Positions 15,948 to 56,885 of a stretch of DNA of 64,000 bases are shown piece by piece. The stretch is from Escherichia phage SpoonbillGilly: sequence record PP925828.1, one strand, 5' to 3'. The position numbers and the translations under genes are program-made. A model generated the notes under the pieces. The model was not told the origin of the DNA and made no database searches. It saw only the letters and a program-made list of their open reading frames with translations. Each line of letters begins with the position of its first letter. Positions within the stretch are counted from its first letter, which is position 1.

Positions 15948-16216
15948 TATTTCTTACCTTTCAGTTGCTTAACTTCACGCTCAAAAGATGCTGCACGACG
16001 TTCGGCAGTTGCTTGATGCTCTTTCGCAAAACGTGCTTCCTGTTTTGCGAGGTTGAATGCCATAGCATTCTTGTTCAGAGAATCGTACATCTTTTTCATT
16101 GCCGGAATAGACATCTTCATGAGCTGACCTTCAAAACCCTGCATATCGAGGAGAATTGCCAGAACGTTAGCCATTTCAGTTTTAGTCATGTTTTCCATTA
16201 GAATTTCCTCTCTCAT
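15947..16216 (-). CDS. hypothetical protein
   Basis: 89-aa ORF directly downstream of promoter module. Confidence 0.5.
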   Translation of the reverse strand: MREEILMENMTKTEMANVLAILLDMQGFEGQLMKMSIPAMKKMYDSLNKNAMAFNLAKQEARFAKEHQATAERRAASFEREVKQLKGKK

Positions 16217-16230
16217 TAATTTATGAACTT

Positions 16231-16259
16231 ATTATACAGAATTTTAAAGCTAAAAGCAA
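16231..16259 (-). promoter_or_regulatory. T5-type early promoter (-10 TATAAT at 16231-16236; -35 TTGCTT at 16254-16259; 17-bp spacer)
   Basis: member of conserved promoter-leader module; RBS GAGAGG follows. Confidence 0.7.
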
Positions 16260-16276
16260 CTGAATTTTTTATTTAC

Positions 16277-16708
16277 TTACCAATCGTTAACGAAACCTGA
16301 GAACTCAGAAGCAAATACCAACTCAAATTTCTCAGCAATTTCAGGATGATCTTTACAGATCAGTTCAATGCACTTCTCAGGTTCCATACCATCTTCTTCA
16401 GGATCACCGTAATACTTGTCCCAAAGATCATCAGGAATAACTTGCTCAGCTAGATCTTGGAAGTTCACTAACTGATAGCGTGGAGTATCCTCATTAATAA
16501 AGATCTCACGCAATTCCTCAGATACTTCTCCCTTATAATCGGAAATTAGCAGAGCATTGCAAGCAAAACATTCCCACATCATCAAACGCTCAGAAATCGG
16601 GTTCGATTTGTCTTGAACATAGGACTGAAAGACTGCCTTAAAAGTAGCTTTAACTTGCTCAAACTTATCTGCTGTTGCGATTAAAAGTGCTTTATCAATC
16701 TTTTGCAT
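16277..16708 (-). CDS. hypothetical protein
   Basis: 143-aa ORF. Confidence 0.55.
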   Translation of the reverse strand: MQKIDKALLIATADKFEQVKATFKAVFQSYVQDKSNPISERLMMWECFACNALLISDYKGEVSEELREIFINEDTPRYQLVNFQDLAEQVIPDDLWDKYYGDPEEDGMEPEKCIELICKDHPEIAEKFELVFASEFSGFVNDW

Positions 16709-16738
16709 TTTGATTCCTTCTCATCAATTTATAAAGTA

Positions 16739-16767
16739 ATTATACAGAAAACTAAGCATTTTAGCAA
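16739..16767 (-). promoter_or_regulatory. T5-type early promoter (-10 16739-16744; -35 TTGCTA 16762-16767)
   Basis: conserved module. Confidence 0.7.
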
Positions 16768-16785
16768 ATGAAGTTTTAAAATAAA

Positions 16786-16806
16786 AGGCCTAAGCCTAGG
16801 CCCGTA
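16786..16806 (-). terminator. intrinsic terminator
   Basis: hairpin ggccta-agcc-taggcc followed on minus strand by ttttatttt. Confidence 0.65.
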
Positions 16807-16869
16807 AAGAAAGAGATAAGAACTACTATCCCTATTGCTATAAATATCTCACGAGCCATGCCATCAAAA

Positions 16870-55473: not shown

Positions 55474-55562
55474 TTGGCTTTCCTTTTTGTAGTTATCAGG
55501 ATTTAGGAAATAGTTTACTTTATTATCAGTCATTTGGCAAATAAAATTTTCTGATAGAAAAG

Positions 55563-55590
55563 GCCCGAGTATTTTCATACCCAGGCCTTC
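55563..55590 (-). terminator. putative intrinsic terminator
   Basis: GC hairpin ggcctggg...cgggcc then ttttcta on minus strand. Confidence 0.5.
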
Positions 55591-55594
55591 TATA

Positions 55595-55837
55595 TTACCA
55601 GTCTAGTTTTTCGGCTTGATTAATTACTTTTGCTTTCGCATTCGCCCTCAGAAGAATATCTACTGATGTTGAAAGTTCATTATAATTAAAAGGCCGATTT
55701 GGATTAGAGGCTACAATTTTCCACGCTAGGGTAGTCTTAGGACTTTCTTCCCCTTCCTTACGTGTAATCATATTAGCAGCACTCAGTGAAGTACGGTGGA
55801 TCTTAGTTTTGCGGTGCAGATGTACGACGTTTCCCAT
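55595..55837 (-). CDS. hypothetical protein
   Basis: 80-aa ORF. Confidence 0.5.
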   Translation of the reverse strand: MGNVVHLHRKTKIHRTSLSAANMITRKEGEESPKTTLAWKIVASNPNRPFNYNELSTSVDILLRANAKAKVINQAEKLDW

Positions 55838-55838
55838 A

Positions 55839-56600
55839 TTACACCTTCCCCATATCCTTAAAGATATCGTAGAATGCTTTAGACTCTGGTGAGCGAACGT
55901 TGTCGATCAGTTCGATCATAGAGAAAGGAGAGTTTTCATACTTCTCATAGACTTCCATAAGAAGTGCTAGACCTGAATCACCCTTGATGTCTTTCTGCGC
56001 TATATCCCCACAGATAATTAAACGACAATCTTGTCCTACACGAGTCAGGAGACAGATCATTGCTTCAACGGAGATATTCTGAGCTTCATCGACAATTACA
56101 TAGGAGTTGTTGAAAGTTCGGCCACGGGCATGTTCGATAGCCAGGAATTTAATTTTCTGACGTTCGACATATCCTTTGTAGGCGTGATCACCGATTGCCC
56201 ATTTCATGCCATCGGCTATTGGTTCCAACCAAGGCTCTAGCTTTTCTGCCAGATCACCTGGGAGCATACCAAGAGATTTACCTAGAGGTTCGTTCGGACG
56301 CACGAGGATCACTTGCTCAATATCTGAGTGAATGTCTACGAGTTCCTGAGCTGCAAGAACGGATGGAATAAAGGTTTTACCAGTACCTGGTTCACCAATA
56401 CCCACAGTCACTGTGTTGTTCTTGATCATATTGATATATGATTTTTGCTCACGGTTTTTACCAACTAGGGGTTTAGCAACTGGATTGGCGTAATCACCAG
56501 AGAAATCTGCTTGAATTACGTTACTCTCGTACTTGTTGCCACGCTTTCTTGAACCATTGCGGTTCTCTCTTTTTTGACGTGCTTTTCCCATAAATAACAC
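55839..56600 (-). CDS. phoH: PhoH-like ATPase
   Basis: 253 aa; Walker A 'GEPGTGKTF'. Confidence 0.85.
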   Translation of the reverse strand: MLFMGKARQKRENRNGSRKRGNKYESNVIQADFSGDYANPVAKPLVGKNREQKSYINMIKNNTVTVGIGEPGTGKTFIPSVLAAQELVDIHSDIEQVILVRPNEPLGKSLGMLPGDLAEKLEPWLEPIADGMKWAIGDHAYKGYVERQKIKFLAIEHARGRTFNNSYVIVDEAQNISVEAMICLLTRVGQDCRLIICGDIAQKDIKGDSGLALLMEVYEKYENSPFSMIELIDNVRSPESKAFYDIFKDMGKV

Positions 56601-56664
56601 TCCTATAGTGTACTTCGCTAACAGAGGATCAACAAAAAGATCTTGTTTATCAACTTACAAATAT

Positions 56665-56693
56665 ATTATACCAATATATACGGGAGAAAGCAA
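56665..56693 (-). promoter_or_regulatory. T5-type early promoter (-10 56665-56670; -35 56688-56693)
   Basis: conserved module. Confidence 0.65.
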
Positions 56694-56885
56694 CTACAAT
56701 TTTAAATAAGCCTATGATATTGCTTTTAAATAAAAAATTTGCTTGCTTTTATTGGGAGATGTGTGGTACTAGATAATCATTTTATATCGCGTACACGGGC
56801 GCGTGATTATACTATTTTTAATAGAGGTTGGCAAATAAAATTTTTTGACTCAGATCAATTTACAGAATGTTATAGTAAAATATTG

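Follow-up and report, generated by a model that had tools for sequence, protein, structure and literature searches.

A 64,000-nucleotide stretch of the genome of Escherichia phage SpoonbillGilly (record PP925828.1; hereafter the window) contains 26 copies of a promoter-leader module of 60-75 bp, most of them on the minus strand of its early region. Each copy is very probably a strong promoter for the host sigma70 RNA polymerase, of the T5 early (P-N25) type, fused to a short standard leader. The original prediction, which had announced about 25 copies from the sequence alone, is confirmed in its central observation. The module itself, including its leader, is already known: it corresponds to the N25-type early promoters of T5, here in a T5-like phage. 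The sequences of the copies, their excess over chance, their placement with respect to genes and tRNAs and the orthology with annotated T5 promoters come from this analysis, whereas sigma70 recognition, promoter strength and the role of the initial transcribed sequence (for N25) and early timing in vivo (for P15A and Ppol) are taken from the literature.

Copies and anatomy of the module

Copies are designated here by the first base of the -35 hexamer, and +1 was set seven bases after TATAAT, as in N25. A regular-expression search found the module on the minus strand at all 23 positions listed in the original prediction. Altogether, 24 copies were recovered on the minus strand (16259 to 56693) and two on the plus strand (58860 and 62172). 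Copy 36202, on the minus strand, was absent from the earlier list, and the two plus-strand copies lie outside the range that it covered.

This number is far beyond chance. The pattern TTGCTN-N17-TATAAT was matched 23 times in the window, against 0.08 matches expected from dinucleotide shuffles (none of 100 shuffles reached 23). Similarly, TATAAT-N6-ATAAATT with at most one mismatch was matched 20 times, against 0.61 expected. With a weight matrix spanning -50 to +12, the copies scored 21.6 to 64.1 bits in leave-one-out mode, and the maximum in 30 random first-order Markov windows was 8.2 bits. Copy 62172 reached 40.6 bits though it lay outside the training set. The sigma70-like sites at 13193, 21415, 56834 and 56886 (the last on the plus strand) scored 13 bits or less with the same matrix. 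A leader-only match at 5579 on the plus strand was rejected as a member, since it has no TTGCTW -35 element.

The elements follow one another in a fixed order: AAAAATT near -43, a -35 hexamer TTGCTW, a 17-bp spacer, TATAAT, a 6-bp A/T discriminator and ATAAATT at +1. Information content peaks at these elements (-45 to -39, -35, -10, the discriminator and +1 to +7) and falls to background in the flanks. Description of the copies as near-identical was, however, overstated: over 60 bp, two copies share 62% identity on average (range 43-87%), and their flanks 28%. Most of the proposed features held up. The upstream region is A-rich: four positions in a row carry A in 20 to 22 of 23 aligned copies, and TT comes next. 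The -35 hexamer is TTGCTT, TTGCTA or TTGCTC in 24/26 copies, the exceptions being TTGACT (19790) and TTGCAG (62172). Spacer length is 17 bp in 25/26 copies and 18 bp in 36574 alone, and TATAAT is perfect in all 26. The leader consensus was also correct, ATAAATT being found exactly at the predicted +1 to +7 in 18 copies out of 26.

The TG repeat proposed to precede TATAAT stood only in part. A canonical TGn is present in nine copies, but in 13 the TG abuts the hexamer (cTGTATAAT, as in T5 P-N25) and four copies have neither. An extended -10 element (TG one base before the hexamer, at -15/-14), present in 9/26 copies only, is thus not a rule of the class. The discriminator begins with ATATT in nine of the 26 copies and is A/T-rich in the remainder, other forms being ATTTAT and AGATTC. 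Downstream of ATAAATT comes a purine-rich GAGAGG, and copies preceding genes carry a GAGG-type ribosome site. Finally, the spacer displays a moderately conserved GC(T) in its middle and an A/T-rich 3' half. The GC(T), at +9 to +11 after the -35 hexamer, creates a second TGCTT-like word about one helical turn past TTGCTT, as in TTGCTTAATGCTTAA.

Other regular features were looked for around the module. An upstream terminator or strong GC hairpin is not a regular part of it: about 8 of the 26 copies have such a hairpin, and 5/26 are more extreme than the 5th percentile of random windows, which is not significant (p = 0.055). No operator-like dyad symmetry was seen in the module. An interspersed repeat of the repetitive extragenic palindrome or miniature inverted-repeat transposable element kind was rejected, given the mean identity of 62% and a conservation confined to promoter elements; terminal inverted repeats were not searched for.

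Correspondence with T5 early promoters and downstream targets

The resemblance to the strong early promoters of T5 is supported by positional orthology. The T5 record (AY543070) carries 75-bp promoter features at the corresponding sites and strands, and the matching sites bear the names P11, P13a/b, P14a/b, P15a/b/c, P16-17, P-D/E33 and P-H207. On the plus strand, T5 annotations include P-N25, P-N26, P-K28a, Ppol and P31A/B. The sequences of these T5 promoters, on both strands, are the same module. That of P-N25 is AAAAAATTTATTTGCTTTCAGGAAAATTTTTCTGTATAATAGATTCATAAATTTGAGAGAGGAG (also given as AAAAAATTTATTTGCTTTCAGGAAAATTTTTCTGTATAATAGATTCATAAATTTGAGAGAGGAGTT). Gentz and Bujard reportedly dealt in 1985 with T5 early promoters of the P-N25 type (P-N25, P-N26, P-K28a, P-H207, P15a and others). 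P-N25 is located at 63043-63117 on the T5 plus strand, and not in the first 50 kb of T5; its place corresponds to a position just past the end of the window. When T5 was scanned with the window-derived matrix, 29 matches were obtained, all between 16.3 and 75.5 kb (early region); the pre-early 1-16 kb and the 76-100 kb segment gave no match. In T5, P-H22, P-J5, P-G25 and P-K28b, which are pre-early or late promoters, have a TTGACA or TTGACG -35 hexamer without the leader. Several further promoter-like sequences of the window (4843, 10718, 13193, and 40132 and 56886 on the plus strand) likewise have a TTGACA-type hexamer and no such leader.

Most of the 26 copies find their best T5 match in the syntenic promoter (73-97% identity); their best paralogue within the window is 54-79% identical. 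Orthologues being closer than paralogues, the copies were individually inherited by vertical descent and not homogenised. The exceptions to a syntenic best match are 38174 (a chimera, see below), 37810 and 50469. The T5 P-N25-type promoters share the architecture base for base, with a spacer often ending in cTG and GAGAGG after ATAAATT, at the same positions and strands. They differ in that T5 belongs to the genus Tequintavirus and the present phage to Epseptimavirus, in that some inter-promoter cassettes are replaced, and in the extra chimeric copy 38174 found here.

The published work on these promoters agrees with this anatomy. N25 consists of TTGctt, a 17-bp A/T spacer and TATAAT, to which an UP element and a discriminator of 6 bp are added (Hsu and Han 2025, PMC12464699). 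It binds polymerase extremely tightly and is limited by escape, its native initial transcribed sequence having evolved for fast escape (PMC12464699). It is recognised by the E. coli sigma70 RNA polymerase (PMC12464699; PMC7472727). All known T5 early promoters have ATATT in the discriminator (Klimuk et al. 2020, PMC7472727), and P15A and Ppol transcripts follow early kinetics in vivo in T5 (PMC7472727). In the T5-like phage AKFV33, 32 promoters were described with TTGCTw, 17-18 bp, TATAATA, AAAAATT at -43 and TAAATT at +1 (Niu et al. 2012, PMC3326045). This consensus is exactly that of the module; the AKFV33 description, however, is genome-wide and by prediction only, and does not separate gene-driving from RNA-driving copies.

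An exact-pattern scan of IMG/VR for the module returned at least 120 stretches. Among the matches listed, most were on contigs of 104-128 kb (the size of T5-like genomes) and several contigs had multiple matches. One locus, 100% identical to Vibrio phage pVp-1, has three copies, and their leader is again that of the module, as in TATAAT tattat ATAAATTAATGAGAGAGG...ATG. A single exact match on a 187-kb contig (L030), unrelated to T5-like phages, is probably due to chance.

Each copy points into the next gene, tRNA or RNA (Table 1). The arrangement of leader then ATG, proposed for the module as a whole, applies to the 18 copies directly preceding a gene, with the ATG at +19 to +35 (15/18 at +22 to +28). 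The others depart from it. Copy 56693 has its ATG at +68, after a 67-nt leader before a phoH-like gene, and some copies, as had been suggested, precede non-coding targets: tRNAs and counterparts of T5 stable RNAs (32278, 33681, 36202, 37810 and 44088). The distance from start to tRNA is 8 nt for 37810 (tRNA-Ser), 26 nt for 33681 (tRNA-Pro) and 119 nt for 36202 (tRNA-Tyr). Copy 32278 is followed by 256 nt without an open reading frame up to tRNA-Ala, and 44088 by 828 nt without a convincing one up to tRNA-Arg.

ATAAATT is kept and GAGG lost before tRNAs or non-coding RNAs in 37810 and 44088, in T5 P15b and P16-17, and apparently at two IMG/VR loci (L015 and L016). Since RNA-driving copies keep ATAAATT without GAGG or ATG, positions +1 to +7 belong to the promoter and probably act at the level of DNA or initiation (including escape), and the rest of the leader belongs to the translation signal.

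The junction between promoter and ATG tolerates insertions, relatives carrying extra genes exactly between the module and its downstream target. A homing-endonuclease gene separates the counterpart of promoter 53095 from nrdB in T5 and PYC03 (window 53036-53065). In several Epseptimaviruses, an extra 389-bp gene sits exactly at the ATG of the 18992 counterpart (window 18926-18932), and a small open reading frame precedes tRNA-Pro in T5 and PYC03 (window 33625-33637).

Table 1. Promoter modules and associated features of the window (coordinates in the window; percentages are identities to T5; bits are module-matrix scores).
Feature	Span	Strand	-35 (first base)	+1	ATG or target	Remarks
Module	16197..16274	-	TTGCTT 16259	16224	ATG 16198 (+27)	59 bits; 96% to T5 promoter feature 16245-16319
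Module	16705..16782	-	TTGCTA 16767	16732	ATG 16708 (+25)	T5 orthologue 16807, 89%
GC hairpin with T-run	16803-16786	-				Just upstream of module 16767
Module	18930..19007	-	18992	18957	ATG 18933	Canonical TGa; terminator-like hairpin 19027-19002 upstream
Module	19725..19805	-	TTGACT 19790	19755	ATG 19728 (+28)	35 bits leave-one-out
Module	24268..24346	-	TTGCTC 24331	24296 (ATAGATT)	ATG 24271	T5 orthologue 24497
Module	26602..26680	-	26665	26630	ATG 26605	TGa
Module	29610..29687	-	29672	29637	ATG 29613	Orthologue of T5 P11, 91%
RNA2H-like RNA	31988..32243	-			Up to tRNA-Ala	256 nt, no open reading frame; from module 32278
Module	32216..32293	-	32278	32243	No open reading frame after	Orthologue of T5 P13b
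Module	33621..33696	-	33681	near 33646	tRNA-Pro (33620) directly downstream	Orthologue of T5 P13a
Module	35364..35440	-	35425	35390	ATG 35367 (+24)	Orthologue of T5 P14b
Module	36140..36217	-	TTGCTC 36202	near 36167 (CTAATTT)		TGa; T5 P14a orthologue; 45 bits leave-one-out
Module	36511..36589	-	36574	36538	ATG 36514	18-bp spacer; orthologue of T5 P15c (also 18-bp spacer)
Module	37768..37825	-	37810	37775	tRNA-Ser (37767)	Positional counterpart of T5 P15b
Chimeric module	38112..38189	-	38174	38139	ATG 38115	
Module	39953..40030	-	40015	39980	ATG 39956 (nicotinamide-nucleotide adenylyltransferase-like)	Orthologue of T5 P15a, 97%
RNAX-like RNA	43226..44053	-			Ends at tRNA-Arg(UCU) 43151-43225	828 nt; driven by module 44088
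Module	44034..44103	-	44088	44053	No open reading frame after	T5 P16-17 orthologue; highest score, 64 bits
Module	44707..44785	-	44770	44735	ATG 44710	Orthologue of T5 P-D/E33, 91%
Module	45548..45625	-	45610	45575 (TTAAATT)	ATG 45551	T5 orthologue 93%
Module	46867..46954	-	46939	46904	ATG 46870 (+35)	T5 orthologue 96%
Module	48975..49060	-	49045	near 49010	ATG 48978 (+33)	Orthologue of T5 P-H207, 93%
Module	49337..49411	-	49396	49361 (ATTGAAA variant)	ATG 49340 (+22)	T5 orthologue 91%
Module	50413..50484	-	50469	near 50434	ATG 50416 (+19)	GC hairpin directly upstream; conserved island between two breakpoints
Module	53032..53110	-	53095	53060	ATG 53035 (nrdB)	TGc; weakest match (21.6 bits leave-one-out)
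Terminator-like hairpin	53135-53114	-				Upstream of module 53095
Module	56588..56708	-	56693	56658 (GTAAGTT)	ATG 56591 (phoH-like)	TGg; T5 orthologue 96%; first promoter of the minus-strand early block
Sigma70-like promoter	56834	-			No open reading frame	TTGCCA-17-TATAAT, G+C-rich start region; divergence point
Consensus promoter	56886	+			nrdD	TTGACA-17-TATAAT; divergence point
Module	58845..58919	+	58860	58895	ATG 58917	T5 orthologue 55708-55782
Module	62157..62226	+	TTGCAG 62172	62207 (ATTGAAT)	Replication-origin-binding-protein gene, after a long leader	TGa; 96% to T5 promoter 58999-59073

Proposed function and alternative readings

By analogy with N25, the parts of the module would act as follows. 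AAAAATT at about -45 to -39 would offer the alpha C-terminal domains a proximal UP-element subsite, TTGCTW would be the -35 element, and the A/T-rich 17-bp spacer together with a perfect TATAAT would give rise to a very tight open complex. The 6-bp A/T discriminator (ATATTT, ATTTAT or AGATTC) would direct initiation to the first A of ATAAATT. The initial transcribed sequence, purine-rich and reading ATAAATT(G/T/A)..GAGAGG, may then ease escape from an otherwise escape-limited promoter, and before genes the same sequence would double as a Shine-Dalgarno site, 6-10 nt ahead of an ATG at about +25. With roughly one module per 1.7 kb, the early region would be divided into numerous short units of transcription, made up of genes, groups of tRNAs and stable RNAs and running leftward from the divergence point at 56.7 kb and rightward beyond it.

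Several points weigh against this assignment. Four copies deviate in the leader (49396, 53095, 36202 and 62172), and no role is assigned to the conserved GC(T) of the spacer. When the window was scanned with a generic sigma70 consensus, no enrichment was seen (47 matches against 51 expected, and 39 against 44). Copies with TTGCTT escape such a scan, this hexamer having only 3/6 positions in common with TTGACA, and the scan is therefore useless for this promoter class. Therefore, sigma70 recognition rests on the N25 precedent and not on similarity to the consensus. Moreover, that every copy is active and early in this phage is something that we infer.

Besides serving as a sigma70 promoter, the module could carry a code (TTGCTW, the ATATT-type discriminator and ATAAATT) by which a phage factor switches the whole early class on or off. 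Indeed, the other promoter-like sites of the window and the pre-early and late promoters of T5 lack these features and use TTGACA or TTGACG, and the matrix matches in T5 are confined to its early region. The T5 protein gpT5.026 was proposed to act via the discriminator, and ATATT was noted as common to early promoters (Klimuk et al. 2020, PMC7472727). The reported effect of gpT5.026 is, however, weak, two-fold or less (PMC7472727), and N25 works at full strength in uninfected E. coli without any phage factor (PMC12464699). The module also lacks visible dyad symmetry of the operator kind, and promoter strength and escape alone can explain its conservation. Thus, we regard such a code as unlikely. 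A wider form, in which TTGCTW, the ATATT discriminator and the -10-like TAAATT would together give a phage factor or retained sigma70 a common means of pausing or shutting off all early promoters at once, appears decidedly unlikely. If true, it would explain the unsolved early-to-late switch of T5.

TAAATT at +2 to +7 could also be read as a -10-like element that holds sigma70 and causes a promoter-proximal pause (about +16 to +18), of the kind seen at lambda PR'. Transcription would thereby be coupled to a phage factor or to the loading of ribosomes. TAAATT matches TATAAT at 4/6 positions, including the key A at position 2 and T at position 6. The pause element of lambda PR' lies at the same distance from +1. 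TAAATT is also retained in copies driving non-coding RNAs. On the other hand, our literature search turned up no description of a sigma-dependent pause occurring naturally at N25, and the A/T richness at +1 is sufficient to account for the conservation. N25 with its native initial transcribed sequence is, in addition, described as fast-escaping (PMC12464699). Both systems have a -10-like hexamer in the first transcribed bases; the present promoters differ from lambda PR' in that there is no Q-binding element, and no Q-like antiterminator was established in this phage. A natural pause at these promoters is therefore quite improbable. A 61-aa open reading frame is labelled 'antitermination protein Q' in the record of one relative.

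In another reading, the modules are mobile or recombinogenic regulatory cassettes, whose similarity is maintained by homologous exchange and serves it. The model would be the promoter-early stem-loop (PeSL) cassettes of T4-type phages, which Arbiol et al. reportedly described in 2010. The likeness is that of many similar early promoters between small early genes of a large virulent phage, with a few cassette boundaries at modules and one promoter chimera in the window. Breakpoints were taken as alignment breaks of the window against T5, UTK0010, Stitch, PYC03 and A148. Over the whole region, 11 of 71 breakpoint clusters fall within modules, against 4.0 expected (p = 0.002), at 18932, 26677, 33634, 37796/39953, 44042, 50434 and 53036-53062. 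However, the enrichment disappears against gene boundaries (8/52 in modules, 20.6% expected, p = 0.87), indicating that breakpoints sit at gene and tRNA boundaries generally and not at modules in particular. Further evidence against exchange is that most copies are nearest to their T5 positional orthologue (73-97%) and not to a paralogue (54-79%), and that copies 62% alike on average are too short and too divergent for efficient homologous recombination. The upstream stem-loop, present in about 8/26 copies, is not significant (p = 0.055). The window thus differs from the T4-type cassettes in having no regular stem-loop, no excess of breakpoints over gene boundaries, and vertical inheritance. 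As a general explanation, recombination hot spots or PeSL-like cassettes were rejected, and we hold this reading to be very improbable.

Chimera 38174, which had counted in favour of exchange, stays an anecdote. Its upstream half resembles 37810 (P15b type), and the 40 nt from the -10 element to the ATG are identical to those of 40015 (P15a). This suggests, on sequence grounds, a past recombination between paralogous promoters. Copies 38174 and 40015 bracket a cassette for a nicotinamide-nucleotide adenylyltransferase (nadR-like) and PnuC, which is absent from T5. A search for related loci with the nadR-like protein returned 4 loci.

Finally, the matches could be read as promoter-like strings that arose by chance in A/T-rich DNA between genes. 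Generic sigma70-like matches, as common in shuffled sequence as in the window, favour this reading, but it has next to no probability left: it is already refuted by shuffling and orthology, the specific module being about 300-fold enriched, strand-specific, conserved at orthologous T5 sites and recurrent in Vibrio phage pVp-1.

The finding that each module is very probably an N25-type promoter mainly confirms that the window is the early region of a T5-like phage. Its result is a reliable map of transcription units, with 26 promoters and their predicted starts, which are unannotated in most deposited Epseptimavirus records. Promoters of the N25 type are much used in expression vectors and in research on promoter escape. 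Having natural variants catalogued together with the initial transcribed sequences native to them is of modest practical value. The unexplained biology lies elsewhere, in the switch-off of the early class and in the RNAX-like RNA, a structured molecule of 0.8 kb that is the side observation of greatest interest.

Non-coding RNAs and genome context

The 828-nt RNA downstream of module 44088 is the counterpart of a T5 feature annotated as 'rnaX, stable RNA with unknown functions', located at the same place, between P16-17 and tRNA-Arg. It folds better than its shuffles (minimum free energy z = -3.5) and has homologues in 523 phage records (T5-like), where it is almost never annotated. The RNA is modular, its ends being conserved and its middle swapped between lineages. 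For the 3' domain, RNAalifold predicted 63 pairs from 9 sequences, with 95.8% of cells paired. A compensatory change was observed in 20/63 of these pairs, compared with 9.1 +/- 1.8 in shuffles (0/500 reach 20) and 1-4 in slid controls. Covariation thus lends suggestive support to the modelled structure, and only suggestive because the sample is small (9 sequences) and the same alignment served to derive the structure. By its size, its structure and its place beside a tRNA, this phage RNA recalls the context of GOLLD and ROOL RNAs. The RNAX-like RNA matches neither of these families, and no Rfam match was obtained for its 828 nt at E<=1.

Similarly, the 256-nt RNA starting at module 32278 corresponds to the T5 feature 'RNA2H, stable RNA with unknown functions', between P13b and tRNA-Ala. 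In its leader, a hairpin GATGAGGA-GAAA-TCCTCATC sequesters the Shine-Dalgarno-like GAGGAG of the standard leader, and no ATG follows. No Rfam family was found for this RNA; the Rfam search of the non-coding targets gave tRNAs only.

Two 20-24-kb pieces of the window matched 613 and 593 phage records by megablast, the closest relatives being Salmonella and Escherichia Epseptimavirus genomes with 96-98% identity. The window is about 97% identical to Salmonella phage vB_SenS_UTK0010 (Demerecviridae), with coordinates nearly in register. Judged from these similarities, the window corresponds to the left-hand 64 kb of a T5-like genome (Demerecviridae, Epseptimavirus). It begins with the terminal-repeat/pre-early part; then comes the early region, whose minus strand bears 27 tRNA genes and which changes to the plus strand at about 56.9 kb. 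Around this divergence point (56650-56950), three promoters (56693, 56834 and 56886) are located within 250 bp, all three of which are promoter-annotated in T5.

The minus-strand block is interrupted by a two-gene plus-strand island (40100-41950) of higher G+C content (0.46). The island has its own TTGACA-type promoter at 40132 on the plus strand, the orthologue of T5 P12. A strong hairpin closes the island (41944-41914), at a site annotated in T5 as a bidirectional terminator. Finally, two tRNA-like sequences on the minus strand were not called by ARAGORN. The first (35711-35782) scores 33.3 bits with the tRNA model, above the gathering threshold, at the site of T5 tRNA-Phe. The second (31160-31250), with a long arm, scores 38.3 bits with the tRNA-Sec model, below the gathering threshold, at the site of the second T5 tRNA-Ser.

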